From the NCBI GenBank assembly GCA_002441245.1, contig DJVP01000011.1, forward strand, positions 1-51,294: a stretch of DNA of 51,294 nucleotides, read 5' to 3'. The position numbers were made by a program, and so were the translations under genes. Origin of the DNA: Candidatus Omnitrophica bacterium UBA6253 (GTDB lineage: Bacteria > Omnitrophota > Gorgyraeia > Gygaellales > Profunditerraquicolaceae). Positions within the stretch are counted from its first letter, which is position 1, and each line of letters begins with the position of its first letter. The notes beneath the pieces are model-generated. The model searched no databases and was not told the origin of the DNA. It worked only from the letters and a program-made list of their open reading frames with translations. Below are positions 10,501-30,421 of this stretch, piece by piece.

Positions 10501-12668
10501 ATAATACGGTATGGGAGGACAGGACAGGTTTGAGCTGTTCTTCATCTATTAAGAATGCCGGGGTTGATGCCGATGATATCGTACTCTATTATTATCCCGG
10601 GCACTTGTACCAGACTACCTGGTCAAGAGACGCCTATCTGGATGCTACTGTTCAGCCTTCTCCTTGGACAGCCGATACCGATGGCAAAGAGGTGACTATA
10701 ACATTAGCTACCCAACTGGTGACAAAAACAAGGACAGTATATTCCTCTGTAACATATGATGCCTCAACTGATATTTTAAGCATACAATGCTGGCTGCAAG
10801 AAGAGGAAAAACTCCTTACTGAAATAGCCGGTTTGCAGGGTTGTTTGATAATAGTTTATGATGATAACGATGCGCAGATTAAAACTTTTGAATATGACGC
10901 TTCAGAATCAGATGCCAGCGGTGTCTTCTGGACGAAATGGGAGCATCCCGGGCTTGAAACTAGTAAGTCTTATTTTGTGCGTTTCAGGATCCAGTTTGAA
11001 GGGGCATTCCATTACGGCGGCAAGACCTTTGAAATAAGCTCAGCTTCGCAGATTGAGAATATTGCCGAATCAGTAAATTCAGGTGTGATTGCTATTACGT
11101 CAGCAATCTCGGAAAGTTCCGCGCAGATAAAGGCAAAAATTGAAGAGACAGCTACTGAGACCCAGAATAAAGTAGCTGAAACCGTTAACTCCGCTAAGAC
11201 ATCGATAGAGAGCAAGGTTACTGTTATCGGCGAGGAAAATAAGGCGGCGATTAATAATGCTGCTACTACGATAAAAGAAAATGTCAGCAGGGAAGCATCA
11301 AGCCGGATAGTAAATGAAGAGAGTTTTATAAAATCAGGAAAAACCTTAAAAATAAAATATAAAGTTGATTCCGGTTTAGAGCTGTCTCCAGAGATAGATG
11401 TATATGACCCTGAAAATAAACAGCGCATATCTAAGGGGGTAATGAGCGAGATTGGGACTACGGGAGTATATGAATATGACCTTACTTTCTTAACTGCCTG
11501 GGGTACGGGATCATTTTCCATCGTTTGTTCAGAATCGACATATGGGACAATTGACGGAATAAGCATAGAGGTAGTAAAGGCAGACTTAGAAGATATCAAT
11601 AGCGCCGCGGTTGTATCCATGTCGCAGTTGTCTAATATCGATACCGATGAGATGAAGAATTTATCTAGCAGTATCGGCATTGTCAGCTCCAGCATAGAGA
11701 AGATTGTAGGTACAATGACTGATTTAGGTTCAATGAGCAATAAGATCTCTGCATTGACAAACGATATCCAGAAGACCGTTTTTGAGCAACTTTCTGTTGC
11801 TTCAGACAAAATGAAAGAGATAGCAAAGCAGCAAAGCGTCAAAATAGACAAAATGATTGATGTGTCTGAGAAGGGCCGGGAGGATGTAAATTATCTTAAG
11901 AAAAAGACTCTGGAGATTAAGGCAACCGCAGAACTTACCAATGAGATAATTCAAAGGTCTAACGATAAGCCGATAAACAAGAGCTGGCTTGAGCCTGGAA
12001 GCATATTAATGAACGCGATGGTGGTCAATCCTTCAACCTCAAAGAGCCAGACTGCTATGCTTAAGGCTTATTTGCCCGTTGAGAGTAAACCCGAAGATAT
12101 AGTGAATTTGGGCGATCTTTCCGTAAGTTACGATGTCCAGGAGAACCTTTATTACGTATTTAAAGAGTTTACCCTTGGCCCCGGAGAAGTAGCTAAACGT
12201 CAGATAGAGCTCAAAGATGTATGGGTAATATCTGAAAAAGAATTAAATGCGAACCTGGAGAGAATTAATGAAATGCTCCAGGATTTAAAGGGCAGTTCTT
12301 TCTACGATAGGGCCTCTGTTATAAAAGGTACCATCCAAACTAGAGTTGATCAAATCCTGGATGCTCAGAAAAAGGCCATTGATGCATTGCCCGATACCCA
12401 CATTGCCGTCTATAGAGCCAATATGCAGATTCTAAATACAATTAAAGATGATCTGGCCAGGGTAGAGGCTATGCTGCTTCAAGCTAAGCCTGCTGTTGGC
12501 CTTGCATTTAATAAAGTATTTGTTAAGACCAGCTGGTGGATAATCCTGTTGGTGGTTGTTTTTCTGGGAGTACTTTCATTCGGACTTTTTATTGTATGGC
12601 ACAAACAGGCAAAGATTGCGCAGATAGAAAAGAAAACCGAGAAGGCTGAAGAACCAATAGATCAATGA
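1..12668 (+). CDS. Giant repeat-rich, C-terminally membrane-anchored fibre/adhesin-like protein. It is 5'-partial and exceeds 4,220 aa within the window.
   Basis: The track ORF is 108..12668. Frame 3 is open from nt 3, and residues encoded by 3..107 (GTITGVTTTAGTLTSVSGTPVNYAAGATTQYVFNF) continue the repeat consensus, so Met-108 is internal and the true start lies upstream of the window. The composition is Thr/Ser/Ala/Gly/Val-rich and Cys-poor. A single hydrophobic helix followed by a Lys/Glu tail sits at the extreme C-terminus. Confidence 0.9.
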   Translation, partial: GTITGVTTTAGTLTSVSGTPVNYAAGATTQYVFNFMPANDVAVGGYLKIEFNSEYSLTGAYLISPSAKYSISSKTGNIIILNVLEQALASSSQSISIGGIVNPGREKTGIKFTLTTLTSGSAVIDTAQSAAINITTGLLTSASVNASTYTTYDLATYTFSFTTVNALDVGGKVEITFDADYDVSGAVFTYGNDGSALSVSGRVVTITLGTAIPKQESVSLAISEIRNPGVQSTDSYSIVTKDSTDVKVDTGTISGKVITGGSMSATSVVAGSTQPAVSTSYTFAFTPDHVIPASGYVKIVFDSDYVLDYTSVQTAGYASNAGPGYVLLTNTSGDDLSGARTIVLLNVKNPSSVEEPTDNFYLTTMTQNQDTIDTKSITGITMTPSPITVSSISTVSTEVSALTSYTIRITPIHTIPIGGKVLITFDSDYNLTNIGSGDVSGNSSTASVSGSTLTVTLGEIASQGSVLTLIVSNVQNPSYVQTTDEFSVITKDASGGKLDSGNITGVTMTEGQLTGLSATPADTTLDATTNYLFQFTPEHTIPLNGYVKISFDADFNLSDAYSGNSSYSVISIGSGYILLKALAEKSTAQSLQILNIRNPSYVQTTDVFSITTQNTNQKNIDTGNAAGITTTAGLLAVNSVSQVSTQAGATTSYTFVFTTVHAVAAGGKVEITFDSDYVLTSVTAYNVSGIANSTVAVSGNKLIVTTGAEVSAGAQVSLIISNIKNPAYVQTTGAFMIDTKNSSGGILDSGSIAGINITAGSLSSVSVTPVSTEVAKSTDYTFAFTAEHSLPSGGYVQIQFDSAYDLTTAIVLTSGYSLITRGSDYLRLQSSDENSGSVSIALRNIINPHYVTTTSAFTIITQTTGGDTIDMGTCNGVTTTAASLISASASAALSEVSAQGEYTFVITPQHDIPVNGKIRITFDSDYNVSEVGTGDAACSGGSATVQVSAKTLILTLGYELAGGTEEGIVISKIKNPSFVQTTSNFAIQTRDDQDRIINQGSASGIAITAGTMTAVSVSADSLVAGYTTNYTFNFTPSHAVNAGGYVVIDFDSAYDASSGYVVSPLSTFSLVSRSANKITLNTLEVLPAGTAQTVVIGTIVNPGSVKQVTFNIATQNSTQNTVDSVVSPAISTQAAPMAAISLTASNLVALDTSTYTFGFTTVNSIDVGGKIEITFDAEYDLTQATYTSGLIGGSTSLVATMALSGSKLILTTNTAVGTQKSVSVVLSNIKNPGVQIVDNFAMLTKDSTGRELDQGSASGVSIIAGSLTGLSVAADSTEISKSATYSFSFTVAHSVPVDGYVKLSFDNEYSFTNANVLSAGYVIVDRQSTFILLKRSAQLIGSNTLQLSNIVNPSYVQTTDPFVITTQLSDNKVIDTGTTQSVSITPGILTQTSAVAVNPLISATSVYNFSFVTSHAIETGGKVVITLDDDYDLSLVSVGSQDVSGTGTPAIESVDGKKINILLSSGVAAAATVSLSISDINNPAYVQTTSSFLLQTKTASGAVKDEGAATGITTTAGALTGITIAPGSSIAGARTDYTFTFTPAHQVGQYGYLRIDLNSQYDANIAYVISPTATFEISEKSANYVVVKTLSALAAGTAYTLRLGSIDNPGRSMDVTFTLTTKTSSGSTIDTGISSTLHITPAPMQSASISANSLVATQITTYTVSFVPINAIEAGGRVEITFDADYVLTGVNSVTGYDASIAVADNVLIITLNTGLEAGAACSFTIPNIKNPGAQTTDAYSLVTKDSTSTSLDEGTIAGKVITAGSLSSLSVSAMSYEVMGTSESTTYTFSFTCQNAIPVNGYIKIGFDADYSLDNAVNQSAQYLISSKGADYLLIKTTQERTGACTIQLSGIRNPSYVQTTNNFTVATQLPAQQNIDVGTIGGITTTAGSLSGLSVTTTNSKIAESAVYTFNFTAEHAIAVGGKVAISLDSDYNLTSVSSTDVSGNTGSTVAVSGADLVITLGEQVFALDSVSLTVSNIVNPSYVKTSADFIFKTKNPENGLIDEGVASGVTFEPGILEAVNVSATNLQVNSQSTYTFTFTPAHAIPSGGYIKIDLDNDFNIDGAYLYLVSGYSFEKNLTDIYFTLQPNSAKPAGTPLTISIAGIINPPYGQITDDFTINTQAVNQSGIDSGTVSGVEITAGQLSGVSVSAAGNNYVVGEQTSYTVSFTTVNAIDAGGKVKITFDADYGFALDGTVSGNSGATVAVSGNIVTVTLGEAVAANQAVSLTMGVLTNPGYAQTTEEFSIKTYDAADNALDSGKASGRDITIGALTGLAVSSSSLSVLNADTKLTFNFNAAHTIPRDGFIKIALDSDYSIVSPYIKSSTGANLTLLTAAGSQDGYLLFKLNAAATGAMSVEVGGLTNPPYEQTTSDFVVTTMYTGEQSIDTGTISGLAITSGALVISSVSCLDNYAGATTEYTIDFTAVHSIPVTSKIEIVFDSNYGLTNASLSSPAGGLTISASTLSISLDAGAAVSSNVSLKIAGILNPGYSQTTDSFKVTVKNIDGNIVDKGEHAGIAILPTQIQFITPAAGDVYSVGDSRSIKWQVTGGNISRTSSHWLVQFSTDANFTSPITVHEGLASVDGDNNLYFVLSVDSSMLSEVVYLRVSCIDNLYTDVAATSGQFSIRPVAAFVGFVAPASAVKWAIGSSNTIEWSTQGAISNNFKIEYFAGNTWTTIYEEGVSGSASVTKAAGAHWYEDDWSYSWTVPQAANLPDSGAVIRVTNSDNSIVTGVSEEFEIATAYIKITSPTEGITWVRTETNNITWEGQGESGTRFSIQYSDTANAITTELYNGSIERTLSEGKWLYSYPWVLSAELEPTDTAAIIITNLDDSGIADTSAIFSVNASGKLEITAPVAGDKWVIGAKYTIKWTSDGQSLSSSSIRITYTADGVAETLITNSTSNTGSKDFTCPSTALSNVKVHLYQINGDVTAESGVFSFVAVPSLQFVSPVANDNWVASFTKEIKWSGVGGGLTQMLVIKYSTDGGSTYPNTIFNYTTDSYEEKISSVVSGTVTNYTLAWPVPINYSNNVKIKIEDMGIMRLVSGSYVPLSVVSGKFSITAPFATIAQPAGGEGWIAGTEHDIIWSETGSLGKDIKISYSVDGGLTYPYVIFQNSTGDSAIYDNYIIPVNSSLSYKWTVPNTISTQCRIKIEGLTNSGSGTSLANFSIKLPIITITSPVSTDLWSIYDTGKLISWTNTGNVSEHLKIEYFKDASTSKVILADVNGTATSYSWDITEDYKSYVSDSGWIKITDLNAETTFGQPLTAVSEAFVLSLPGFEINVPASPLITGSSYNITWQGIGMYSECSTDPSNTIRLEYGVGDNPTWITISASTQNDGSYENWVVPDKHSSDVKFRITNNTWSFITGISEPFKIMGSLSITSPAAGTKLFVGQEQMMEWSTNGTINKVNLYYSKNNGSTWNAIATDTTNNGYYMWTIPDAVLVDRSPNSSVYFKVEDATDSAVYINRQYTISYYKVTWNVIDADGLVGDLDGLSVNTLDVTNNNTVWEDRTGLSCSSSIKNAGVDADDIVLYYYPGHLYQTTWSRDAYLDATVQPSPWTADTDGKEVTITLATQLVTKTRTVYSSVTYDASTDILSIQCWLQEEEKLLTEIAGLQGCLIIVYDDNDAQIKTFEYDASESDASGVFWTKWEHPGLETSKSYFVRFRIQFEGAFHYGGKTFEISSASQIENIAESVNSGVIAITSAISESSAQIKAKIEETATETQNKVAETVNSAKTSIESKVTVIGEENKAAINNAATTIKENVSREASSRIVNEESFIKSGKTLKIKYKVDSGLELSPEIDVYDPENKQRISKGVMSEIGTTGVYEYDLTFLTAWGTGSFSIVCSESTYGTIDGISIEVVKADLEDINSAAVVSMSQLSNIDTDEMKNLSSSIGIVSSSIEKIVGTMTDLGSMSNKISALTNDIQKTVFEQLSVASDKMKEIAKQQSVKIDKMIDVSEKGREDVNYLKKKTLEIKATAELTNEIIQRSNDKPINKSWLEPGSILMNAMVVNPSTSKSQTAMLKAYLPVESKPEDIVNLGDLSVSYDVQENLYYVFKEFTLGPGEVAKRQIELKDVWVISEKELNANLERINEMLQDLKGSSFYDRASVIKGTIQTRVDQILDAQKKAIDALPDTHIAVYRANMQILNTIKDDLARVEAMLLQAKPAVGLAFNKVFVKTSWWIILLVVVFLGVLSFGLFIVWHKQAKIAQIEKKTEKAEEPIDQ
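7566..10412 (+). repeat. Second in-frame tandem array: about 9 modules of roughly 95-115 aa with consensus I[TV][SA]P..G..W..G....I.W...G......I.Y
   Basis: Module starts were read from the translation: IQFITPAAGDVYSVG, VGFVAPASAVKWAIG, IKITSPTEGITWV, LEITAPVAGDKWVIG, LQFVSPVANDNWV, IAQPAGGEGWIAG, ITITSPVSTDLWS, FEINVPASPLITG and LSITSPAAGTKLFVG. Each ends in F.I/F.V. Boundaries are approximate. Confidence 0.7.
11030..12530 (+). other. Ser/Ala/Glu/Lys/Ile-rich, largely helical (coiled-coil-like) stalk with embedded beta segments, lying between the repeats and the TM anchor
   Basis: The translation contains long runs such as SAISESSAQIKAKIEETATETQNKVAETVNSAKTSIESKV and MKNLSSSIGIVSSSIEKIVGTMTDLGSMSNKISALTNDIQKTVFEQLSVASDKMKEIAKQQ. 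No Pro/Gly-rich breaks are present. The secondary structure is judged by eye only. Confidence 0.45.
12531..12596 (+). other. C-terminal transmembrane anchor of the giant protein
   Basis: The 22 hydrophobic residues SWWIILLVVVFLGVLSFGLFIV are followed by the charged tail WHKQAKIAQIEKKTEKAEEPIDQ. By the positive-inside rule the tail is cytoplasmic and the bulk of the protein lies outside the membrane. Confidence 0.75.
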
Positions 12669-12867: not shown

Positions 12868-13653
12868 ATGCTGATAAGAAATAAAATATGGGTTAATTGG
12901 GCATTATTGAGCAGTTTTTTATTTATCCCTTTGCAAGCTGATGCTGCAACCGATACCTGGAATAATATAGAAAAGAGTAAGCACTTTATCATTTATTATC
13001 AGGATGCATCTGCTGAATATATTAACCGGCTGGTTAGAGAGGCGGAACATTATTATAAGAATATTACTCAATACTTAGGGTTTGTGAGATTTGATTTTTG
13101 GATTTGGGATAATCGTTGTAAAATATTTCTTTATCCGGACGCCGAGACGTATTTAGGGACTACTGGAGTTGTTTATTGGTCAAGGGGGCATGTCCAGATT
13201 AAAACGAAAGAAATCAGCACTTATATTTGGCAGGAAATGTTCTTTGATACAATTCTTCCGCATGAGATTGGCCATATAATATTCAGGGAGTTTGTCGGTT
13301 ATAACAAGGCATTGCCTCTTTGGCTTGATGAAGGGGTGGCATGTATGCAGGAATATGAAAGTAAGGACCGTCTGGCAACCGCTAAATGCCTGGTAAGCTT
13401 GAAATTATACACGCATTTAACTGATCTGGCTACGATTAAAGATTCAAGCGTAATTATACCGTTTATTTTTTACAACGAGTCAGCCAGCATAGTGGATTTT
13501 CTCTTAAGGAGGTTCGGCAGGAATAAATTTGTAGATTTCTGCCGTTCTTTGCGGGATGAGCCTAATTGGGAACAATCCCTTAAAGGCGTATACAGGATAA
13601 AAGGCATGGAAGAATTAGAAAAACTTTGGGTTGCGGATTTAACTGAAAATTAA
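12868..13653 (+). CDS. Secreted gluzincin-type zinc metallopeptidase (peptidase MA-like)
   Basis: The N-terminal signal-like segment WALLSSFLFIPLQADA is present. HEIGH lies at nt 13261-13275, and a Glu (WLDEG, nt 13330-13332) follows exactly 18 residues after the second His, giving HEXXH-X18-E. Confidence 0.7.
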   Translation: MLIRNKIWVNWALLSSFLFIPLQADAATDTWNNIEKSKHFIIYYQDASAEYINRLVREAEHYYKNITQYLGFVRFDFWIWDNRCKIFLYPDAETYLGTTGVVYWSRGHVQIKTKEISTYIWQEMFFDTILPHEIGHIIFREFVGYNKALPLWLDEGVACMQEYESKDRLATAKCLVSLKLYTHLTDLATIKDSSVIIPFIFYNESASIVDFLLRRFGRNKFVDFCRSLRDEPNWEQSLKGVYRIKGMEELEKLWVADLTEN

Positions 13654-13717
13654 AATCCGGTTTTTTAAGCGTTAGCAAAGATTTGTTTATTCAAGAAGAT
13701 AACAGGAGGTTCAGGTT

Positions 13718-14629
13718 ATGAAGAATGATGTAAAAGCCCGGGAATTCAATATTTTAGTCGTTGAGGATGATGAAAGGACATTTAAAACCATAAAAGACGG
13801 CTTGATAAATCCGGAATATAAACTGCATCGGGTGACTACGGGACAGGAGGCGATCAACCTGGCCAAAGAAGGCTATTTTGTCGCTATTATTACCGAGATG
13901 CAGATCGGGGATATGAATGGGATTGAGTTAATCCGCCGGCTTAAGAAAATAGATCAGCGGATTAATATAATCGGTCTGACCGTTTATGCCTTTGTTAATC
14001 TAGCGGTGGAGGCAATGAAGGAAGGTGTCTATTCTTATCTGATGAAACCGATCAATACGGAAGAGTTGAATTTAGTTTTGAGGCGGGCGATAGAGAATAC
14101 CTTTCTTTTGATACAGGCAGGGCAAAGGAAATATTATCAGGATATCGCTACTATGGATGGCTTGACCGGTGTTTATAACCATCGCCATTTTCACGAAATG
14201 CTGGATTGGAATATTTCGCATTTGAACCGTTCCCCGCAAGCCTTCTCGCTTTTTATTACCGATATTGATGATTTTAAGAAATATAATGATACTCATGGCC
14301 ATGTAGAGGGGGATAAGATATTACATAATTTCGCTCAGCTATTAGTCAGTTCTACCAGGGATAATGATATGGTGTTTAGATATGGAGGGGAGGAGTTCGC
14401 TGTAATTTTGTCGCAGACAGACCAGTTTAGCGCCCAGAAGGCCGGGGAGAGGCTGCTGGTAATAGTAAGGAGCCGGATGCCTATTACCATGAGCGTAGGT
14501 TTAGCCAGTTTTCCATTGAATGCCCAGATTAAAAGCGAGTTAGTCATACGCGCTGACAAAGCGCTTTACCGGGCTAAAAAAACAGGTAAAAACAGGTTAT
14601 GCACATTTGACGAGAAAATAGACATATGA
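13718..14629 (+). CDS. Response-regulator receiver fused to a GGDEF diguanylate cyclase (GGEEF active site, RxxD I-site); receiver has Glu at the phospho-acceptor position
   Basis: An AGGAGG Shine-Dalgarno precedes the ATG. The receiver shows ILVVEDDE, GLTVYA and LMKP. The GGDEF domain shows YNHRHF, DIDDFKKYNDTHGH, RDND followed by 5 aa and then GGEEF (nt 14384-14398). Residue 60 (nt 13895-13897) is Glu where CheY has Asp57. Confidence 0.85.
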   Translation: MKNDVKAREFNILVVEDDERTFKTIKDGLINPEYKLHRVTTGQEAINLAKEGYFVAIITEMQIGDMNGIELIRRLKKIDQRINIIGLTVYAFVNLAVEAMKEGVYSYLMKPINTEELNLVLRRAIENTFLLIQAGQRKYYQDIATMDGLTGVYNHRHFHEMLDWNISHLNRSPQAFSLFITDIDDFKKYNDTHGHVEGDKILHNFAQLLVSSTRDNDMVFRYGGEEFAVILSQTDQFSAQKAGERLLVIVRSRMPITMSVGLASFPLNAQIKSELVIRADKALYRAKKTGKNRLCTFDEKIDI

Positions 14630-14838
14630 AAAACTTAACGATTATCCTGATAATGTTGATCAGTACCTTAGGCCCGTCGGCGGTAATCGCGGCGGTAGGT
14701 TTTTCCGGGGTTAAGGCCATTGGCAGGAATCCTTCAGCAGCACCCAAGATTTTAATTTCCATGGTACTGGCATTTATTTTTGCTGAAGCCATAGCCGTAA
14801 TCGGGCTTTTGGTCGTATATAATTTATTCGGACAGTAA
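14626..14838 (+). CDS. atpE: F-type ATPase subunit c (proteolipid)
   Basis: This 70-aa two-helix hairpin has a GRNPS polar loop (R-N/Q-P type) and a membrane-embedded carboxylate in FAEAIAVIGLLV. Its ATG overlaps the GGDEF stop codon (ATGA). Confidence 0.8.
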   Translation: MKNLTIILIMLISTLGPSAVIAAVGFSGVKAIGRNPSAAPKILISMVLAFIFAEAIAVIGLLVVYNLFGQ

Positions 14839-14889
14839 GGGGCTATCCTTGTTCGTTTTACTCGCAAGGAAAGCGCTAGATAAAAACTA

Positions 14890-14904
14890 TAAGGTGCTTG
14901 ATTT
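14890..14904 (+). promoter_or_regulatory. Copy 2 of the TAAGGTGCTTGATTT motif, in the c/b-delta intergenic gap
   Basis: The 15-mer is identical to the one at 12793..12807. No properly spaced -10 element follows this copy. A 6-bp hairpin (TCCTTG..CAAGGA, about 14850-14873) lies just upstream. Confidence 0.35.
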
Positions 14905-14931
14905 GGGCAATAAAAATAAAGAGGAGCCTAT

Positions 14932-15690
14932 ATGCTGGTATGGCAGATAATTCTTATTCAAATAGCTACTTTTACTTTAATTGTTTTATTTTTACGCTGG
15001 TTGCTTTATAGCCACATCAGCCGCGCCCTGGAGAGGTTGCAGAAGTTAAATCAACAAAACCTGGAGAAAGAAAAGGTGCTCAAGGAGGAATTTGAGCGGG
15101 CAAGAAAACAGGCGGAGATCGAGATCCAACAGGGTAAGGTTGAGGCTGAGAGCATAAAAGAACAGGCAAAAGAGGATGGAGAAAAGACAAGAAGGAATTT
15201 GCTTGAGGCTTCTAAAGAAGAAGCAAAACGAATTGTTAGTGAAGGGATCAGGGACAGCCAGAGAAAATATAATGATTTACTTCTGGAGATGCAGGATAAA
15301 TCGGTATACCTGGCAGTTGATATTATAAAATATATTTTTACAGAAAGGATCCGTCAGGTCATACATATCCAGGTTATTGATGAATTGATAGATGATGTAG
15401 CCGGGCTGGATAAAGAAAAGATACGGGCCCAGGGGGATAAGGCAGAGATTGTTTGCGCCTACCCCTTAGGGGCGGATCAGAAACAGCGATTACAGCAGGC
15501 CTTATCTAATAAGTTAGAGCGCAATATTGTATTAGAGGAGACGGTTGACCCGGAGGTCGTCGGAGGCCTGATTATACGCTTAAGCGGATTTGTGGTTATT
15601 GACGGCAGTATCAAAAATAAATTTAAAAGAATAGTGCCGATAATGAAAGATAAAGCCAGGGCTGGTGTTGAACAGGCGGAGAAAGGTTAA
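14932..15690 (+). CDS. F-type ATPase stator subunit: b fused to the C-terminal domain of delta (OSCP)
   Basis: The N-terminal TM segment IILIQIATFTLIVLFLRWLL is followed by a charged helix typical of subunit b. The C-terminus (AEIVCAYPLGADQKQRLQQALSNKLERNIVLEETVDPEVVGGLIIRLSGFVVIDGSIKNKFKRI) matches the delta/OSCP C-terminal consensus. A GAGGAG Shine-Dalgarno is present. Confidence 0.7.
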   Translation: MLVWQIILIQIATFTLIVLFLRWLLYSHISRALERLQKLNQQNLEKEKVLKEEFERARKQAEIEIQQGKVEAESIKEQAKEDGEKTRRNLLEASKEEAKRIVSEGIRDSQRKYNDLLLEMQDKSVYLAVDIIKYIFTERIRQVIHIQVIDELIDDVAGLDKEKIRAQGDKAEIVCAYPLGADQKQRLQQALSNKLERNIVLEETVDPEVVGGLIIRLSGFVVIDGSIKNKFKRIVPIMKDKARAGVEQAEKG

Positions 15691-17157
15691 ATGCAGGAGA
15701 TAAATTTAAAGCCGTTAGAGATAAAGGACGTAGGTACGGTTAAAGAGATTAAAGGTGGCGTAATTAAAATAAGCGGGCTGGCTTCCTGTGTAAATGGCCA
15801 GTTGATTGAGCTTGCGCCTGATTTAATGGGTATGGTAATCGGTTTTACCAAGAGAGATGTCTTGGTTTTAGTTTTAGGCGATGAAAATAAGGTGCATATT
15901 GGCGATACTGTTTATGGGGAAGAGGGTGTTTTTGAAATTCCCGTAGGGAGTAATTTTATCGGCAGGGTAGTAAATACCTTTGGCCAGCCATTGGACGGCA
16001 AGGGTAAGATTGAGGGGGTGGATACTTATCCAATATTCAGAAATGCTCCCGGGGTCTTGGATAGGACGCCAATTGTAGAATCATTCCTTACCGGTACTAA
16101 AATTATCGATACTTGTATTCCCTTGGGTAAAGGCCAGAGAGAACTTATCCTGGGGGACAGGGTTACTGGAAAAACCACGCTGGTAATTGATGCGATTATA
16201 AATCAGAAGGGCAAGGATGTAATCTGTATATATTGCTGGGTAGGGGGTAGCCAGTCTGCCTTTTTGAAGATTATGGAACAGCTTAGGTTAAGCGGAGCTA
16301 TGGATTGGACTATTGTTGTGGCGGCCTCGGCATCTGCTTCTCCCGCAGAACAATATCTTGTCCCCTATGCTGCCTGTGCATTGGGAGAGTATTTTATGGA
16401 TCATGGCAGGGATGTTTTTTGCGCTTTTGATAATTTAACCCGGCACGCCTGGATCTACCGTGAGATATCCCTGCTTTTAGAGAGAAGCCCGGGCAGGGAA
16501 GCCTATCCCGGGGATATTTTTTATATCCATTCCCAATTAATGGAGCGAGCTGGCAAGTTAAATGAAGAAAAAGGAAGCGGCTCAATGACCTTTTTGCCTA
16601 TTGTAGAAACACAGGAAGGAGATATTACCGGCCTTGTTCAGTCTAATCTTGTTTCTATAACTGACGGCCAAATATATTTAAGCGCATCCCTTTTTAATGA
16701 AGGTTTCAGGCCGGCTATTGATTTAGGGCTTTCTGTCTCGCGAATTGGAAGTAAGGTCCAATGTGAATCCATAAAAAAAGTAAGCCGTTCCTTAAAGAGG
16801 GAATTTGCCCAGTATAAGGAATTAGCCGCTCTTACTACTATTAGAACTAAACTCTCTGCTGATATAGAACTTAGATTGAAGAGGGGGCAGGCATTAAGGG
16901 ATTTTTTCATTCAAGATAAATCAAGGCCTCTTTCCGTAGAAGAAACAGTGGTGCTTTTTTATGCTTTTATCAAAGAGATCCCTGAAATATTAGAAGAATC
17001 TAAAAGAGAAAATTTTAAACAAGAGATATTTGGTTATCTGCTTAAGAATTACCCGCAATTAATTGAAGAGCTTGCTATACAGAAGCTTTTAACCGGCGGG
17101 GTAGAAAGAGGCCTGGATAAGGCATTTGAGGATTTTTTTGAAGTTTCTAACAGCTAA
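15691..17157 (+). CDS. atpA: F1 ATPase alpha subunit
   Basis: The P-loop reads GDRVTGKTT. The motifs DNLTRHAWIYREISLLLERSPGREAYPGDIFYIHSQLMERA and GLSVSRIG are present. The start codon directly abuts the upstream stop (TAAATG). Confidence 0.9.
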   Translation: MQEINLKPLEIKDVGTVKEIKGGVIKISGLASCVNGQLIELAPDLMGMVIGFTKRDVLVLVLGDENKVHIGDTVYGEEGVFEIPVGSNFIGRVVNTFGQPLDGKGKIEGVDTYPIFRNAPGVLDRTPIVESFLTGTKIIDTCIPLGKGQRELILGDRVTGKTTLVIDAIINQKGKDVICIYCWVGGSQSAFLKIMEQLRLSGAMDWTIVVAASASASPAEQYLVPYAACALGEYFMDHGRDVFCAFDNLTRHAWIYREISLLLERSPGREAYPGDIFYIHSQLMERAGKLNEEKGSGSMTFLPIVETQEGDITGLVQSNLVSITDGQIYLSASLFNEGFRPAIDLGLSVSRIGSKVQCESIKKVSRSLKREFAQYKELAALTTIRTKLSADIELRLKRGQALRDFFIQDKSRPLSVEETVVLFYAFIKEIPEILEESKRENFKQEIFGYLLKNYPQLIEELAIQKLLTGGVERGLDKAFEDFFEVSNS

Positions 17158-17172
17158 AATCTAAGGAGCAGC

Positions 17173-18069
17173 ATGATTCCATTAGTTATATTACGTAAAG
17201 ATTTAGCGTTTAATAAGGTGATGGAGAGTATTATCGAGGTTTTGAAGGGGGTGGCTGCGACCGAGTATTTCCACCTTCAAAGCAAAAGAAAGAGTTTCGA
17301 TGAGTTTGAGGGTTATCTAAGGGATTTATTTGAACGGGTAGATATCAGCGGTTTCCAGCACCCTTTTTTAGGGGGGCCGGCTTCTTCAAGTAATATTGTT
17401 ATGATAACCTCGGATTCCGGTTTTCTCGGTGAACTTAATATGTCAGTAGTGAATTATGGTTTGGCCCAGTATAGAAGCGATGACCTGCTTACGGTAGTCG
17501 GTAAAGAAGGAGTCAGGTATATAGGAGAGCAAGGAATAAAATATACCAGTTTTGCCGGTATTGATGATGATATTTCTTATAGTACAGTGATAAAATTAAG
17601 AGACCATATAGTAAATGAGTTTTTTAACAAGAAATTAAGCAGTACGGTTATTGTTTACCCGCATTTTGTTTCTTTTGCGGTACAAAAGATTGAACAGTTC
17701 CAATTGTTCCCCTGCAGGTTTTTATTTCCACAGGAGTCAGGTTCCGGAAAAACAGGCCTTGGCCAAGCCGGGTTTTTGCAAATAGACCCCAGCGAGAAGG
17801 TGATATTGGACTCGCCCTTGAAGTCAATTGTAGAATATTTAGTCAAGGTATGGGTCGGGCAATTAATCCATCTTATCTTTTGGGAGAGTAAACTTTCTGA
17901 ATGGGCGGCTCGTGTAATGCATTTAGAGAGAAGTTCTAACGAGATCAGGGATCAGCAGAAGAAAATGAGGCTGCAATATTTTCGCACCATGCATGAAAGA
18001 AGCGATAAGAGTACTAGGGAGATTTTTGTCAGTAGGATGGCTTTGAGAAAGACCGGGGCCATAGCTTAA
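17173..18069 (+). CDS. atpG: F1 ATPase gamma subunit (divergent)
   Basis: The call rests on size (298 aa), position between alpha and beta, an N-terminal helix ([17 protein letters not shown]) and a C-terminal helical segment ([19 protein letters not shown]) resembling the gamma termini. Confidence 0.65.
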
Positions 18070-18083
18070 AACAGGAGTTTTTA

Positions 18084-19493
18084 ATGCAGGAAGGTAAAGT
18101 TGTTTCAGTGCAGGGACCGATTGTAGATGTAGAGTTCCCTCCCGAGGTGTCGTTTCCGGCAGTCTATGATATTATCGAGACAGAGACCTTTGACGGGCAG
18201 CGGATAGTATTGGAGGTAGTCGAGTATTTAAGCAAGACGGAGACGGATAAGACGAACACTATGCGTTGTATCTCCCTTACCCCCAATTTTGGCTTGCGTA
18301 GAAATGCCAAGGCCTTTGCTGTCGGTTCAACGATTAGTGTTCCCGTAGGGGAAGTAACCTGTTCCCGGATATTAAATGTGTTGGGTGAGCCGGTAGATAA
18401 AAAAGGCGCTATCAAGGTTGGCCCGGAGTCCATCAGGCCTATCCATAAAAAACATCAAATAGCTACAGTTGATACAGGGGAAGGTAAGGAGAAAAAGTTT
18501 GAGGTTATGCAGACAGGGATCAAGATGTTCGATCTTTTATTTCCTCTGATCAGAGGCTCAAGGAATGGTATTTTGGGAGGAGCTGCTTGCGGTAAGAGCG
18601 TAATTATCCTTGAGCTTATGCATAATATTATTAAGATGCAAAAAGGATATTGTGTATTTACCGGGGCTGGAGAACGGACCAGGGAAGGAAACGAGTTATA
18701 TTATGAGCTAGAGAAGCAGGAAATATTAAATAGGTCATCTTTGGTTTTTGGGCAGATGAATGAATCTCCTGGAGCCAGGTTTGAGGTAGTCCATACCGGT
18801 TTGACATTGGCAGAGTCTTTTGTTGAAGCCGGTGATGATGTTTTATTGTTTGTTGATAATGTATTCAGGTTTGCTCAGGCAGGCAGCGAGTTATCTACGC
18901 TCCTGGGGAGAATCCCTTCTGAAACCGGTTATCAACCCACCCTGCCTACAGAGATGGCTGAATTCCAGGAGAGGATCCGCTCTATAGGGCAGGCTTCAAT
19001 TACAGCGATGGAAGCAGTCTATGTGCCTTCTGACGACTTGACTGATCCGGCCGTTGTCTGCATATTCAGTTATTTAGATTCCATAGTTATCTTGTCACGC
19101 CGGTATGTTCAGTTAGGACTTTTTCCCGCTATTGACGCCTTGACATCCTCCTGTGCTTTTCTTGACCCTATGATTATTGGAAACAGGCATTTCAAAATTT
19201 CCCGGGATGTCTTAAGGATCCTTAACAGGTATGAGGAGCTTAGGCGTATTGTTGCTATTGTAGGGGTAGAGGAGCTTTCCGGAGGAGACCGTATCATATT
19301 TGAAAGGGCGCAAAAACTGCAGAATTTTCTTACTCAGCCATTTTTTACCGCAGAAGCTTATACAGGCAAAAAAGGGGAATATGTCCCCTTAGAGGCGACT
19401 TTAGAGGGCTGTGAAAGGATAGTTGCTGGCCAGGTGGATAAAGTTCCTAATGAGAAGTTCTATATGATTGGGGCATTGTTGGCTAATCCTTAA
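18084..19493 (+). CDS. atpD: F1 ATPase beta subunit (variant P-loop and degenerate DELSEED)
   Basis: The P-loop reads GGAACGKSV. The motifs [43 protein letters not shown] and [13 protein letters not shown] are present. The DELSEED position reads EELSGGD (nt 19269-19289). Confidence 0.9.
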
Positions 19494-19569
19494 TTTAATA
19501 TTTAAAATGATTTTGGCTGGGAAAGCATAAGTAATAAATTCATACAAATAAACAAGGGAGACCAAGGGA

Positions 19570-21294
19570 ATGTTAATTAAAATAGGGCAGATGCTGATTA
19601 ATAAGAAATTGATTACGCCTGAGCAGTTAGAGGCAGCTCTTGCCGAACAAGGTAAAACCGGTGAGCTTTTAGGGGTTATCCTGGTTAAAAAGGGTTTTTT
19701 GAGCCAGGAGGATTTCTTAAAAGTACTTTCTGAGCAGTTTAATGTGCCTTTTATAAAGTTAAAGGAAACCGCTATTGATCCTTTAGCGATAAAGAAAGTA
19801 CCCGCCAAGTTCGCCTGGTATTATAAAGTTATGCCGGTTAAATTTGTAGATAATAAATTGCTTATTGCTTCTTCTGACCCCTTGCGTTCTCTGGATGATC
19901 TGAGAATATTCTTAGGTTATGATTTGAAGCCGGCCCTGGCTTCGGAATCAGAAATAATGGAAATGATCAAGGAGAATTACGGGGTAGGCGCTGAGACTGT
20001 AGAGGGGATCATTGCTAAAGCGCCCAAAGATACCAAGGGGCAGGATGCGCCAAAAGAAACAGGCAAGATTGAGGATATAGAGAAATTAGCCGAAGATGCC
20101 TCAGTAGTCAAGTTGGTAAACCAGATAATTCTGGAGGCTTATCAGAAGAGGGCAACCGATATCCATATTGAGCCATTCCGGGGTAAGATGAATATAAGAT
20201 ACCGTATTGACGGCGTTCTTTACAACGCAAATGTTCCGGCTGATATCGAGCGGTTTTTCCTGGCGATTATTTCGCGTATAAAGATAATGTCCAGGTTGAA
20301 TATTGTAGAACGCCGACTTCCTCAGGATGGCCGCGCTGTGATAAAAATTGGGCAGGAGGAACTGGATTTAAGAATTTCGATTATCCCCACGCGTTACGGT
20401 GAGGGTATGGTTATAAGGATCCTTCCCATGAGTATGCTTTTTAGCCTGGAGCGGCTTGGCTTGGTCCCTGAGGATTTAGAGATTTTGGCAAAATTAATCA
20501 AGAAGCCCCACGGCATAATCCTGGTTACCGGGCCGACGGGAAGCGGCAAGAGCACTACGTTGTATGGGTGTTTGAATGATATAAAAAGCAGCAAGAATAA
20601 GATAATTACTATTGAAGACCCTATAGAATATGAACTGGAGGGTATAATTCAAATCCAGGTCATTCCGGAAATAGGGTTTACTTTTGCTCAAGGCTTAAGA
20701 AGTATATTAAGGCATGATCCGGATATTATGATGGTAGGAGAGATCAGGGATTTTGAGACCGCGGAGCTGGCAATAAGGAGTGCGTTAACCGGGCATTTGG
20801 TTTTTTCCACCCTGCACACAAATGACGCTGCCGGGGCGGTTGCCCGCCTGTTAAATATAGGTATTGAGCCATACCTGGTAGCTTCTTCCGTAGAGGCATT
20901 CATCGCCCAGAGGTTGGTGCGCTTAATCTGCCCGGAATGCAAAAAGATAGATACGGCGATACCGGATAATGTCAGGTCGTTAATAAGCCAGGATATAGCC
21001 AAGAGCAAAACAGATTTAAAACATTTAAAACCTGAAGAGATTAAATTTTACAAGGGGCAGGGCTGTAAGGAATGCAATTTTACCGGTTATAAAGGCAGGA
21101 CTGCAATCCATGAAATACTGGTAGTAGATAAGCTGATAAGAGAGTTGATGTTGAGGAAGGCATCAACCGATGAATTAAGGGATAAGGCGGTCAGTCAGGG
21201 AATGAAGACTTTGCGTTTATGCGGGTGGAAGAAGGTTATCGACGGCCTGACTACTCCCGAAGAGATATTGAGGGTAACCCAGGCAGAGGAGTAA
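19570..21294 (+). CDS. gspE: Type II secretion / type IV pilus assembly ATPase (GspE/PilB family) with an MshEN-like N-terminal domain
   Basis: Walker A is GPTGSGKST. The motifs IMMVGEIRD and FSTLHTND are present. The tetracysteine cluster reads CPECKK...CKECNFTGYKGR. The N-terminus is LITPEQLEAALAEQ...LLGVILVKKGFLSQEDFLKVLSEQ. Confidence 0.9.
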   Translation: MLIKIGQMLINKKLITPEQLEAALAEQGKTGELLGVILVKKGFLSQEDFLKVLSEQFNVPFIKLKETAIDPLAIKKVPAKFAWYYKVMPVKFVDNKLLIASSDPLRSLDDLRIFLGYDLKPALASESEIMEMIKENYGVGAETVEGIIAKAPKDTKGQDAPKETGKIEDIEKLAEDASVVKLVNQIILEAYQKRATDIHIEPFRGKMNIRYRIDGVLYNANVPADIERFFLAIISRIKIMSRLNIVERRLPQDGRAVIKIGQEELDLRISIIPTRYGEGMVIRILPMSMLFSLERLGLVPEDLEILAKLIKKPHGIILVTGPTGSGKSTTLYGCLNDIKSSKNKIITIEDPIEYELEGIIQIQVIPEIGFTFAQGLRSILRHDPDIMMVGEIRDFETAELAIRSALTGHLVFSTLHTNDAAGAVARLLNIGIEPYLVASSVEAFIAQRLVRLICPECKKIDTAIPDNVRSLISQDIAKSKTDLKHLKPEEIKFYKGQGCKECNFTGYKGRTAIHEILVVDKLIRELMLRKASTDELRDKAVSQGMKTLRLCGWKKVIDGLTTPEEILRVTQAEE

Positions 21295-21301
21295 TAAAGG
21301 T

Positions 21302-21541
21302 ATGTTTAAGGTATCGGTGCTGGATATAAAGACAGCTTCGACTATATTCCAGGAGTTAGTTTCTTCTGTTATACTGCCTGGTGACGAAGGCGAGCTTTCT
21401 ATATTAGATTTTCATCAACCGATCATCTCTTGTTTAAAAGAGGGTATGATTAAAATAGATAATATCCCGCCTGTGGTTATCAAGAGTGGCATTGCAAGCA
21501 TGCAGGATAATGAACTGGTAGTATTGGTGGAGAAAAAATAA
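21302..21541 (+). CDS. atpC: F1 ATPase epsilon-like protein: N-terminal beta-sandwich domain only (79 aa)
   Basis: VSVLDIKTASTIFQELVSSVILPGDEGELSILDFHQPIISCLKEGMIKI aligns by eye with the epsilon consensus (..G.EGE[LF]GIL.GH.P.......G...I). No C-terminal helical hairpin is present. The gene starts 7 nt after the gspE stop and ends 1 nt before the gspF start. Confidence 0.65.
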   Translation: MFKVSVLDIKTASTIFQELVSSVILPGDEGELSILDFHQPIISCLKEGMIKIDNIPPVVIKSGIASMQDNELVVLVEKK

Positions 21542-21542
21542 G

Positions 21543-22790
21543 ATGCCAATATTTGTTTATCAAGCAAAAAAAGGTCCTCAGGAAGTTATCGAAGGGACTG
21601 TCGATGCCGCAACCAAAGAAGCGGCTGTGAATAAGATAGAGAATATGGGTTATGTGCCTATCCGGGTTAATCTTGAAAAAGAGCCTAATGTTGGTGCTGC
21701 CGGAAAACTGCCAGGAGACAAAAATGCCGCTGTTGGGCATTTGGGGCTGTTTGAAAGGGTTGGTTCCCGTGACTTAAATGTATTTACTGAACAACTGGCT
21801 ACCTTGGTTAAGTCTAAGGTACCGCTTTTTGAAGCTATAAATATTCTTTCTTCTCAGACGGATAATCCCAGGCTTAAAATGATAATAACTTCTATATCCG
21901 GTGAATTAAAAGACGGTAAAACCTTGTCGGAGGCATTAAGTAGATACCCCCAGGTTTTTCCTTTGCTATATGTTAATATGGTCCGTTCAGGAGAAACAGG
22001 CGGTGTTTTAGATGAGACCTTGACCCGGCTGGCTAAATTCCGTGAAGAACAAGAAGAGGTAAGGGCAAATATCAGTTCAGCCCTGGCATATCCGATCTTT
22101 ATAACAGTAGTAGGTTTGATTACCGTTATTATCCTGCTTACCTTTGGTATTCCGCGTTTAGTTTCTATGTTCAGCGAAACCAAGCAAGCCCTGCCTTTGC
22201 CTACCAGGATCTTGATTTCAATAAGTAGCGGAATCAGGAATTATTGGTATTTAGGGATTACATTTATAGCCCTGGTAATCTTTATCCTGCAACAAAAACA
22301 GGTAGCTAAGAAAAAAAAGGCTATTCTTGAAAAGATTATATTAAGGTTGCCCTTAATCGGAAATTTTAGCAAAAAGGCTATGCTGGGGGAGTTTACCCGG
22401 ACTTTTGCTTTACTCCTGGCTAATGGGGTTCCGGTACTTGAGGCCCTTCAGATAACAGTGCCGACAATAAATAATGAAGTATTTAAACTGGAGCTGGAAA
22501 AGGTACATAGCGACCTTATTGTGGGTACTCCTCTTTCTCAGAGCATGAGAAAATCCAGCTGGTTCCCGCCATTTCTGACCAATATGATAGCGGTAGGCGA
22601 AAGAGGAGGGAATCTTCAAGATGTATTATTGGAGGTGGCAGTTTTTTATGAGCGCGAAGTAAGAAAAATAAATAAAATAATGACCTCTTTACTTGAACCA
22701 GCGATAATCTTAGTTATGGGTTTAGTAGTAGGGTTTATTGTCATAGCGATGCTCCTGCCTATTTTTGAGATAAATATGGCGGTGCAATAA
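21543..22790 (+). CDS. gspF: T2SS/T4P inner-membrane platform protein (GspF/PilC family)
   Basis: This is a 415-aa protein with a duplicated GspF domain. The motifs LATLVKSKVPLFEAINIL, VNMVRSGETGGVLDETL and NMIAVGERGGNLQDVL are present, along with three TM segments. Confidence 0.9.
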   Translation: MPIFVYQAKKGPQEVIEGTVDAATKEAAVNKIENMGYVPIRVNLEKEPNVGAAGKLPGDKNAAVGHLGLFERVGSRDLNVFTEQLATLVKSKVPLFEAINILSSQTDNPRLKMIITSISGELKDGKTLSEALSRYPQVFPLLYVNMVRSGETGGVLDETLTRLAKFREEQEEVRANISSALAYPIFITVVGLITVIILLTFGIPRLVSMFSETKQALPLPTRILISISSGIRNYWYLGITFIALVIFILQQKQVAKKKKAILEKIILRLPLIGNFSKKAMLGEFTRTFALLLANGVPVLEALQITVPTINNEVFKLELEKVHSDLIVGTPLSQSMRKSSWFPPFLTNMIAVGERGGNLQDVLLEVAVFYEREVRKINKIMTSLLEPAIILVMGLVVGFIVIAMLLPIFEINMAVQ

Positions 22791-22805
22791 TAAGGGGGAA
22801 TTTAA

Positions 22806-23222
22806 ATGAAGGCAAAAAGTGGCTTTACGCTTATAGAGTTAATGTTGGTAGTTATAATCCTCGGTGTTTTAGCGGCGATGGTAATGCCAAGGCTGTCCGG
22901 ACGCTCAGAGCAGGCAAAGTCCTCAGTGGCTAAGACAGATATCAGCGCTAATATAGCAACTGCCCTGGATCTTTATGAGCTGGATAATGGCAGATACCCG
23001 ACTACAGAGCAGGGGCTTAGCGCATTAGTGACAAAACCGGGGGATCTTTCCGATGGGTCTAATTGGAATGGCCCCTATATTAAAAAGGAACCTAACGATC
23101 CATGGGATAAGGCGTATCAGTATAAATACCCTTCAACGCATGAAGGCCAAGACTATGACTTGTATTCCCTGGGGGCAGACGGCATAGAAAGTGAAGATGA
23201 TATCGGCAACTGGGAAAAGTAA
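22806..23222 (+). CDS. gspG: Major pseudopilin GspG
   Basis: The prepilin leader and cleavage motif reads MKAKSG/FTLIELMLVVIILGVLAAMV. The GspG-type body includes LDLYELDNGRYPTTEQGL, DPWDKAYQY and LYSLGADGIESEDDIGNW. Confidence 0.85.
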   Translation: MKAKSGFTLIELMLVVIILGVLAAMVMPRLSGRSEQAKSSVAKTDISANIATALDLYELDNGRYPTTEQGLSALVTKPGDLSDGSNWNGPYIKKEPNDPWDKAYQYKYPSTHEGQDYDLYSLGADGIESEDDIGNWEK

Positions 23223-23595
23223 AGGTTTTACGTTAATTGAAATAATGATCAGTATATCCATCCTGTCTGTGGGGTTGATTTTTGTGCTTCAAGGGCTCAC
23301 CCAGTGCCTTAGTATTTTGCGTATTTCCCAGAATAATCTGGAAGCAAGTTTGTTGGCTGAGGAGAAGATGGCAGAAGTAGAGATAGCCGCTAAGCAGGAT
23401 AAGACCACATTCTCTAAAGATGCAAGCGGAGAAGAGCAATCCGGTAATATAGAATTTAAATGGCAAATACGATTGACTCCTGACAGTGGATATGAAGATC
23501 TTAATAAGGTCATGGATACTGTTTATTGGAAAGAGGGCAGAAGGAGCGGCGTCAGCGTATTTAATACTTATTTGTTAATCCCGCATGATAAATAG
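23191..23595 (+). CDS. Minor pseudopilin (GspI-like)
   Basis: The leader reads ...GKSKG/FTLIEIMISISILSVGLIF. At 134 aa the size matches GspI. The start is GTG 23191 or ATG 23197, and the gene overlaps the end of gspG. Confidence 0.6.
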   Translation: MKMISATGKSKGFTLIEIMISISILSVGLIFVLQGLTQCLSILRISQNNLEASLLAEEKMAEVEIAAKQDKTTFSKDASGEEQSGNIEFKWQIRLTPDSGYEDLNKVMDTVYWKEGRRSGVSVFNTYLLIPHDK

Positions 23596-24205
23596 AAAGA
23601 ATAATAAAAAGAAGTTCATCATGGGGTTTACCCTGGTTGAACTTATTATCAGCGGGGCAATAATCTTTTTGATTTCTGTAACTGTGTATTCCGTATTTTC
23701 CAGTGGTATTAATGTCTGGAAAAAAGCTAATCAGGCCAAGAGCAAGGGGTATGGTTTAAGACTGATTGCGGATAAGTTGAGTATGGAGCTAAGGAATACT
23801 TTTAAGTTTTCCAGCATTCCGTTTGAGGGCACCGAAGATTCTATTTCTTTTGCTGCCCTTGTCGATAACGGGGTAAGCAGGACCAGCTATTTTATTAATG
23901 AGGATAATGTTTTTTGCCGCAGGCTTCAGAGCTATGCGGATGTTTTTAAGAAGGGCGAGTCCGGTAATTATGATTTACTGTTTTTCGGGGCCAAGAAGTT
24001 AAAGTTTAGCTATTGTTACCTTGATAACGCAACAGGTGATTATGAATGGAAGGATGAGTGGATAAAAGAGGAGCAGGATACTATCCCCCAGGCAGTAAAA
24101 ATAGAGTTGACTTTTGAAGGAAAGCCTGAAGAAGAATTAAAATTTACCAAAACGGTCTTCATCCCTATTGGTACGGGAGAGCAACGGATAGAACTTATAC
24201 AGTAG
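23585..24205 (+). CDS. Minor pseudopilin (GspJ/H-like)
   Basis: A basic leader, MINRKNNKKKFIMG/FTLVELIISGAIIFLISV, precedes a 206-aa protein. The gene overlaps the preceding gene by 11 nt. Confidence 0.5.
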   Translation: MINRKNNKKKFIMGFTLVELIISGAIIFLISVTVYSVFSSGINVWKKANQAKSKGYGLRLIADKLSMELRNTFKFSSIPFEGTEDSISFAALVDNGVSRTSYFINEDNVFCRRLQSYADVFKKGESGNYDLLFFGAKKLKFSYCYLDNATGDYEWKDEWIKEEQDTIPQAVKIELTFEGKPEEELKFTKTVFIPIGTGEQRIELIQ

Positions 24206-24215
24206 GGGTAAGTTT

Positions 24216-26730: not shown

Positions 26731-26736
26731 ATAAGA

Positions 26737-28414: not shown

Positions 28415-28435
28415 TAAAAGGCCGATAAAAAAAGA

Positions 28436-28465
28436 TTAGCATTAGAGCACCAGAAGAAGTATAAT
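28436..28465 (+). promoter_or_regulatory. Possible sigma70-like promoter for the kinase/regulator pair
   Basis: TTAGCA, an 18-nt spacer, then TATAAT. The -35 match and the spacing are both sub-optimal. Confidence 0.3.
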
Positions 28466-28496
28466 TTATAAAAAGAGAAGGATTAATCTTAACCTC

Positions 28497-30415: not shown

Positions 30416-30421
30416 AAAGCA

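Follow-up and report, generated by a model that had tools for sequence, protein, structure and literature searches.

Gene content and layout of the cluster

By inspecting a 51,294 nt stretch of DNA from Candidatus Omnitrophica bacterium UBA6253 (GenBank assembly GCA_002441245.1, contig DJVP01000011.1, positions 1 to 51,294 of the forward strand; the whole stretch is referred to as the window), we characterized a set of F-type ATPase genes that is embedded among genes of a type II secretion system (T2SS)/type IV pilus (T4P)-like machine. The set encodes subunits c, alpha, gamma, beta and epsilon, together with a peripheral-stalk protein in which a b-type part is fused to a part of delta (b-delta). 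All six genes are present, intact and co-oriented on the + strand with Pfam or NCBIfam matches (Table 1), as had been proposed in an earlier reading of this DNA (the original prediction). The gene list given there stood, while the position of gspE had been under-described: this gene sits inside the atp set, with beta on its 5′ side and epsilon on its 3′ side.

Open reading frames (ORFs) of at least 100 aa in the window were scanned with Pfam. Alpha matched PF00006 at 1e-72 and passed the atpA equivalog TIGR00962 (536.9 vs a cutoff of 484.45), and beta, in which both the GGAACGKS P-loop and the GERTREG motif are found, passed the atpD equivalog TIGR01039 (541.6 vs 462.85). Besides these two NCBIfam equivalogs, gamma, epsilon and c cleared Pfam thresholds only, with subunit c reaching an E value of 2e-7 against PF00137 (31.5 bits, cutoff 24) and gamma staying below the TIGR01146 equivalog cutoff (72.7 vs 194), which bears out the strong divergence of gamma that had been predicted. 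The T2SS-like set of the window comprises E, F, G, H/I-like, J and K components, a PilMN protein (L-like) and a PilO protein (M-like), with GspE and GspF scoring just under their NCBIfam equivalog cutoffs (for GspF, TIGR02120, 369 bits vs 424); no secretin, GspC or A24 prepilin peptidase was found among the window ORFs of that length.

From position 12868 to 27270 all genes lie on the + strand with tight spacing, and the stop codon of the REC-GGDEF gene overlaps the start codon of c (ATGA). In a promoter and terminator scan of the window, the one intergenic signal obtained was a terminator-like hairpin after the giant gene, and no intergenic terminator-like site was found on the + strand between 13653 and 27270. 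Together with the tight spacing, this is consistent with one predicted operon running from the protease gene to PilO.

Table 1. Genes of the cluster and the giant gene upstream of it, with their positions in the window and the matches on which each assignment is based.
Feature	Position	Strand	Basis
Giant 4186-aa repeat surface protein, upstream of the cluster	108-12668	+	ORF list
Secreted Peptidase_MA_2 zinc metalloprotease, HEIGH motif	12868-13653	+	PF13485, E 3.6e-8
REC-GGDEF response-regulator diguanylate cyclase	13718-14629	+	PF00072 and PF00990
F-type subunit c, 70 aa, loop GRNPSAAPK, ion-binding Glu in FAEAIA	14626-14838	+	PF00137
Peripheral-stalk fusion (b-delta): b-type transmembrane (TM) segment and long helix, then delta/OSCP C-terminal domain only	14932-15690	+	Pfam, NCBIfam, alignments, PDB profile search, AlphaFold2, Foldseek
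F-type alpha, divergent, without the N-terminal delta-binding helix	15691-17157	+	TIGR00962 passed; N-terminal alignment
F-type gamma, very divergent	17173-18069	+	PF00231, 4e-28, 99 bits
F-type beta, clade-specific P-loop GGAA[CL]GKS	18084-19493	+	TIGR01039 passed
GspE/PilB-type hexameric ATPase (T2SSE), 574 aa, N-terminal MshEN	19570-21294	+	PF00437 6.5e-129, PF05157, NF053729
F-type epsilon, N-terminal beta-sandwich only, no inhibitory C-terminal helices	21302-21541	+	PF02823, 5.7e-13
GspF/PilC platform protein	21543-22790	+	PF00482 5e-69
GspG pseudopilin	22806-23222	+	Pfam set T2SSG, N_methyl, T2SSJ, T2SSK_1st
GspH/I-like pseudopilin	23191-23595	+	Pfam set T2SSG, N_methyl, T2SSJ, T2SSK_1st
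GspJ-like pseudopilin	23585-24205	+	Pfam set T2SSG, N_methyl, T2SSJ, T2SSK_1st
GspK	24216-25238	+	Pfam set T2SSG, N_methyl, T2SSJ, T2SSK_1st
PilM-PilN fusion, GspL-like	25207-26730	+	Pfam PilM_2, PilN
PilO/GspM-like protein, last gene of the cluster	26737-27270	+	Pfam PilO

Peripheral stalk, alpha and the search for subunit a

In the stalk protein, PF00430 covers residues 7-133, and the OSCP match is confined to residues 169-234, which correspond to profile positions 103-168 of 172. The AlphaFold2 model (pLDDT 89) combines a 134-residue helix (residues 2-135) with a short helix and a domain of the alpha/beta type, which superposes on delta/OSCP C-terminal domains at 1.1-1.9 Å; the six-helix N-terminal bundle of delta is not seen in the model. 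The stator is thus b joined to the C-terminal part of delta only, as the original prediction had stated. By searching the b-delta profile against the PDB, the mycobacterial AtpFH b-delta protein was found as the best match in both sequence and fold (6.5e-18), and the C-domains of AtpFH and the Omnitrophota fusion superpose at 1.1-1.3 Å with 34-39% identity; the V-type stalk subunit E was also matched (6e-6). The mycobacterial protein differs, however, in being ~445 aa long, in containing a full delta including the N-domain, and in working beside a separate b′ and a normal subunit a.

Alignment of the alpha subunits revealed that all members of the clade lack the N-terminal ‘EISxLIK’ helix, which binds the delta N-domain in canonical enzymes. 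The missing alpha helix agrees with the missing delta N-domain, and the two have been lost in concert.

The b-type TM helix is the best-conserved stretch of the stalk protein in the alignments. Within b-delta residues 1-26 (14932-15010), a polar stripe of Q6, Q10 and T13 is conserved and Arg22 is invariant at the cytoplasmic end; these features are unusual in b subunits and may form a contact surface for the c-ring or for another membrane partner. An apparent b-delta-alpha fusion ORF in one related locus (L040) was recognized as an artefact of a masked run of N.

To search for subunit a, a custom HMM was built from 19 canonical a subunits of reference operons and applied, together with a hydropathy screen, to the window and to 51 related Omnitrophota loci with up to 10 kb on each side. 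The HMM recovered 39 matches in the canonical reference loci at E values of 1e-24 or better, which served as the positive control, and gave no match at E <= 10 in the window or in the 51 related loci. Likewise, Pfam ATP-synt_A had no match among the scanned ORFs of the 51 kb, and the hydropathy screen of the window and the 51 loci found no unassigned ORF with at least three TM segments, the polytopic ORFs of the window being only an MFS transporter, CbiM, CbiQ and a histidine kinase. That the 51 kb contain no subunit a, as the original prediction had noted, is therefore upheld by all three approaches, and on these sequence criteria subunit a is absent from the locus, within 10 kb of it, throughout the clade. 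Two sets of candidates were rejected. In L009 and L014, the unannotated 244-264 aa proteins encoded ahead of the cluster are single-pass and homologous to the C-terminal module of the giant protein, and a 152-aa ORF in L007 is unrelated and soluble.

Conservation of the cluster and its place among rotary ATPases

A breadth scan with one genome per species, in which a full-length b-delta fusion was required, yielded 37 species-representative loci, and 91 clusters of b-delta fusion homologues were found. The b-delta and alpha homologues bear Omnitrophota names, and the labels of the 37 loci are Omnitrophota or placeholders, save one. This one (L039; JAIWAR010000001.1, 87 kb) is a full cluster on the largest contig of a metagenome-assembled genome (MAG) labelled as a Methanosarcinales archaeon and is probably mis-binned; the label is of note because V. 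archaeovorus associates with Methanosaeta. The exact beta protein of the window was also found, in the same neighbourhood, in two NCBI MAGs and several metagenome assemblies. Two near-complete chromosomes bear the cluster, and cluster-bearing complete genomes include CP070837.1 (1.55 Mb) and the 1.99 Mb contig behind L014.

Gene order was counted in the species-representative loci that extend far enough (22-23 loci). Beta is followed by GspE in 22/23 loci, the exception having a split beta with GspE still next to it; the order GspE-epsilon-GspF was found in 21/22, and the GGDEF gene lies beside c in 20/22. A metalloprotease gene belongs to the cluster in 18 of the 22 loci with enough upstream sequence, and it is placed between c and b-delta in L009 (9196-9927), L014 (8986-9756) and L046. 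The order of the pseudopilin genes is likewise kept in related loci, most of which have a giant ORF ahead of the cluster, and the arrangement is maintained down to ~30% identity of b-delta. Since in two of the most divergent loci (L047 and L048) the epsilon gene precedes c and does not lie between GspE and GspF, the epsilon position is conserved but not obligatory. In a distant relative (L011, 2413-3153), a nucleotidyltransferase/HEPN pair resembling a toxin-antitoxin module is inserted between c and b-delta, and the cluster is otherwise intact.

The catalytic motifs were compared across 30-34 distinct orthologues. In beta, the Walker A motif GGAA[LC]GKS, GER[TIV]REG, Walker B and the adenine-pocket motif are conserved, as are Walker A and the Arg finger (SVSRIG) in alpha, so that the motifs described as intact in the original prediction are conserved across the clade; the DELSEED loop has kept its place with reduced acidity. 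This pattern is one of purifying selection. Because these residues are conserved in both subunits, the ATPase is predicted to be catalytically competent and is not a relic. A decaying, non-functional remnant of an ATP synthase that had lost subunit a would explain the absence of a and of the delta N-domain from the locus, the truncated epsilon, the very divergent gamma and a Glu-to-Gln replacement in one c orthologue (L047). Nevertheless, all ORFs are intact in dozens of species, the catalytic residues are invariant, and across lineages the identities are 65-94% for c and 51-93% for alpha/beta where b-delta has drifted to ~30%. The remnant reading is extremely improbable and appears to be effectively refuted by this conservation pattern.

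To place the two large subunits, they were compared with canonical sequences of five phyla. Among the canonical sequences themselves, identity is no lower than 55% for alpha and 60% for beta, whereas the Omnitrophota proteins are only 38-50% (alpha) and 41-50% (beta) identical to canonical sequences; beta is ~50% identical to solved beta subunits in the PDB. In a paralog-rooted neighbour-joining tree, alpha and beta each formed a clade outside all sampled canonical sequences. A position of the pair well inside canonical F-type clades had been named beforehand as one of two findings that would cost the original prediction its novelty, and the pair falls outside the sampled ones. Compared with canonical F1Fo (atpBEFHAGDC), the homologous c, b, alpha, gamma, beta and epsilon genes follow the canonical order and the c carboxylate is intact, but no a is detectable at the locus, delta is a C-domain fused to b, alpha lacks its N-helix, epsilon lacks its C-terminal helices, and the operon is interrupted by gspE.

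These data bear on another alternative, an ordinary housekeeping ATP synthase with a split operon and incidental secretion neighbours. The canonical c-b(delta)-alpha-gamma-beta-epsilon order and the equivalog matches of alpha and beta speak for it, and it is nonetheless very improbable given the interleaving with gspE/gspF conserved throughout the phylum and the sequences outside the canonical range. In addition, cluster-bearing members are annotated with a V-type enzyme for their bioenergetics: Ca. Susulua stagnicola and Ca. Orphnella occulta, both of which carry the cluster, are listed with a V-type ATP synthase (Williams et al., 2021). Those Omnitrophota that have a complete ‘respiratory’ F-type enzyme group in an alpha clade of their own (Seymour et al., 2023, PMC10066038).

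Other rotary ATPases resemble the set in part. As in N-ATPases, there is no separate delta gene, and the stalk finds its best NCBIfam match in the long N-ATPase b subunit, with an alignment that is nearly full-length. However, the scores against TIGR03321, TIGR03324 and TIGR03305 (61.8, 494.8 and 476.6) are far from the cutoffs (224.7, 750.5 and 752), and the N-ATPase order atpDCQRBEFAG includes AtpQ, AtpR and subunit a, whereas the order here is c-b-alpha-gamma-beta without Q, R or a. The Mycoplasma F1-like X0 types 2/3, which include the gliding G1-ATPase of M. mobile, are, like the Omnitrophota set, F1-derived ATPases whose presumed task lies at the cell surface or in motility and not in ATP synthesis. 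Their clusters lack c, b-delta and epsilon, all of which the Omnitrophota clusters keep. The models for MMOB1660/1670 and MSC_0619/0618 gave scores of 401 (cutoff 600), 378 (850), 320 (520) and 365 (570), the Omnitrophota alphas scored on the type 2/3 models the same as canonical alphas did in HMM-score controls, and the G1-ATPase beta in the PDB was matched much more weakly than canonical betas. Thus, the published assignment of alpha to Mycoplasma types 2/3 (Seymour et al., 2023, PMC10066038) finds no support in the HMM scores obtained here.

The FliI6-FliJ-FliH complex is comparable as a functional analogy only. It is an F/V-derived ATPase attached to a secretion machine by a stalk, FliH, which is built of a b-like helix and a globular C-domain of the delta/E type. 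On the FliI/SctN models, whose cutoffs are 380-700 bits, the two large Omnitrophota subunits reach 160-210 bits, and the Omnitrophota set differs in having a heterohexamer, in keeping gamma, epsilon and the c-ring, and in being associated with a T2SS/T4P-like instead of a type III (T3SS) partner.

Among the membrane parts, subunit c shows an exceptional conservation. Its Glu carboxylate is retained in 34/35 distinct orthologues; in the remaining one (L047, 8453-8665), Gln replaces the ion-binding Glu (FAQAIA), which could be a true loss of the carboxylate or a sequencing error in the MAG. When locus pairs with beta less than 75% identical were compared, the mean identities were 76% for c and 64% for beta in Omnitrophota cluster pairs (c minus beta, +12 points), against 36% and 66% in canonical operon pairs (−30 points). 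Because c is hyper-conserved and the b TM helix is the most conserved part of the stalk, these patterns imply a conserved membrane partner, which might be a stator of the a type that escaped detection or else further parts of the machine.

A candidate accessory rotary module of a pilus or secretion machine

Loci of this type have been described across Omnitrophota as ‘symbiotic’ non-respiratory F-type ATPase/type-4a-pilus loci (Seymour et al., 2023, PMC10066038): divergent F-type alpha and beta genes adjoin pilus-assembly genes, often beside a giant ORF, with F-type ATPase and pilus genes co-located within 10 kb on 57/66 contigs and loci found in every class. The window combines an Omnitrophota genome, a non-canonical alpha (by our own tree, not that of Seymour et al.) and pilus-assembly genes within 10 kb; nothing essential differs, and it is another instance of this locus type. 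The novelty assumed in the original prediction was therefore largely pre-empted, the locus type having been known since 2023, and what appears to be new here are the anatomical details. In the main text and the available supplements of that study we found no mention of the absence of a with c kept, the b-delta(CTD) fusion, the loss of the alpha N-helix, the GspE between beta and epsilon, the REC-GGDEF/MshEN link or the embedded metalloprotease. In our literature search, no later work on the system was found, nor any paper on the lack of subunit a, on the fused stalk, on an alpha without its N-helix, on gspE placed within the atp set or on the wiring to c-di-GMP. A 2026 preprint covering 176 complete genomes reports ‘incomplete F1F0’ in most complete Omnitrophota genomes, in which V/A-type subunits are common; its accessible part gives counts for alpha, beta and gamma and none for subunit a.

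The reading that we favour, at a probability of roughly 0.55, is that the cluster encodes a rotary module that is driven by ATP and accessory to the pilus/secretion machine, as one instance of the Omnitrophota ‘symbiotic’ non-respiratory F-type locus. It is preferred because the atp/gsp interleaving is conserved, alpha and beta are non-canonical, two cluster-bearing species have a V-type enzyme, and Seymour et al., 2023 likewise arrived at a non-respiratory role. Between the two options left by the original prediction, a split operon or a reduced F1-like rotary ATPase serving the adjacent apparatus, it is thus the rotary ATPase at a secretion machine that is favoured, although ‘reduced F1-like’ understates an enzyme that has retained c and the stalk. 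The module would consist of an alpha3beta3 hexamer, a gamma-epsilon shaft, a membrane c-ring and a membrane-anchored b-delta(CTD) stalk, with neither a nor the delta N-domain cap, and it would be co-transcribed and co-inherited with the giant surface protein, the secreted metalloprotease, a phospho-activated diguanylate cyclase and the T2SS/T4P-like pseudopilus machine. The sequence data show which genes are present, how their domains are built, that the catalytic residues are conserved, that synteny is strict and that the proteins diverge from canonical F-type sequences; the assembly of the complex, its direction of catalysis, the absence of a functional a and any physical coupling to the pilus machine are inferred.

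In the mechanism proposed for the accessory module, phosphorylation of the REC-GGDEF protein would raise c-di-GMP, by which GspE would be switched on; ATP hydrolysis would then rotate gamma-epsilon together with the c-ring relative to the b-delta stalk, without translocating ions, and the work would serve the pilus or attachment apparatus, ATP synthesis being left to the V/A-type enzyme. Two features, the REC-GGDEF gene ahead of c and the MshEN domain carried by GspE, hint at control of the machine by c-di-GMP. The MshEN domain of the cluster GspE scored 66.4 bits on NF053729 (cutoff 38) in addition to the PF05157 match, the tandem MshEN motifs are kept in all 27 cluster GspE proteins, although Lys often replaces the first Arg, and an RxxD I-site and GGEEF are found in all 26 REC-GGDEF orthologues. 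No Rfam family, and hence no c-di-GMP riboswitch, was detected in the window.

Some points weigh against the accessory module. The matches of alpha and beta to the NCBI equivalogs for atpA and atpD remain above cutoff; the kept carboxylate of c and its conservation above that of beta are what would be expected if an Arg-bearing stator partner exists; F1 and the GspE hexamer would both want the cytoplasmic face of the platform, which poses a steric problem; and subunit a is notoriously divergent in some lineages. The main alternative is an ion pump powered by ATP, with a subunit a that lies elsewhere in the genome or is too divergent to be recognized. Placed in the pilus operon, such a pump would energize the membrane of a fermentative cell at the time when a secretion/pilus machine that consumes proton-motive force is built. 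Besides the retention of the c Glu and the exceptional constraint on c, the presence under selection of all rotor and stator parts but a and the clearance of canonical equivalog cutoffs by alpha and beta argue for such a pump, and atp genes are scattered in some bacteria, a ‘missing’ a having later been found in other lineages. Nevertheless, in none of the 51 loci is a or any unassigned polytopic protein encoded within 10 kb, and all seven remaining parts stay in the cluster without exception; both the N-domain of delta and the N-helix of alpha are lost; and cluster-bearing species already have a V-type enzyme. In the available part of the KO table of Seymour et al., 2023, the one comparable genome (221) has K02111 and K02112 without K02108, a weak point given that KOfam also misses the divergent c, b and gamma. 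Taken with these data, an ion pump is possible but unlikely.

A further reading goes beyond the accessory module in taking the F-type module as a physically integrated second motor, with the b-delta stalk docked on PilMN/PilO/GspF and torque delivered to the pseudopilus or to the anchor of the giant adhesin. The constrained c and b TM helix would then reflect contacts with Gsp/Pil membrane proteins instead of subunit a, and the arrangement, if true, would be a present-day case of an F-ATPase turned into the mechanical engine of a secretion or pilus apparatus, in parallel to the origin of FliH/I/J in type III systems; we regard this reading as unlikely and put it forward tentatively.

The last ~220 aa of the giant protein (from ~nt 12003) form a conserved module with the motifs VVNPS.SK.Q..LKAYLP and THIAVYR and a single TM anchor at its end. 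Because this module stands alone as a gene in other Omnitrophota, being a separate signal-peptide gene in L009 (6938-7672) and L014 (7284-8078), the giant protein appears to have been fused to a conserved component of the cluster that provides a membrane anchor.

Nearly all rotary F-type ATPases couple energy conversion to ions, and here a phylum-wide variant in a pilus/secretion operon has kept a membrane rotor and a stalk without a detectable ion channel. If the accessory module is real, it would represent a rare F-type motor doing mechanical work, with bearing on the evolution of the FliI/FliH/FliJ secretion ATPases from rotary ATPases and on the means by which Omnitrophota that are ultra-small and host-attached hold on to other cells or attack them. 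The details of anatomy given here turn what has been a two-sentence genomic remark in the literature into testable hypotheses.

Elsewhere in the window, the region downstream of the cluster (27296-46120) is housekeeping-like and encodes a chorismate-binding enzyme, a two-component system, a DEAD helicase, an MFS transporter, NikR, an OprB porin, CbiMQO, glycine cleavage T/H/P proteins, lipoate ligase and synthase, and ThyX. Within 46221-51294, a second GspE-type ATPase with MshEN (49201-50856) is 42% identical to the cluster copy; it has a PAS histidine kinase and a receiver protein on its 5′ side and the start of a second GspF on its 3′ side, and to this second pilus/secretion system no ATPase genes are attached.

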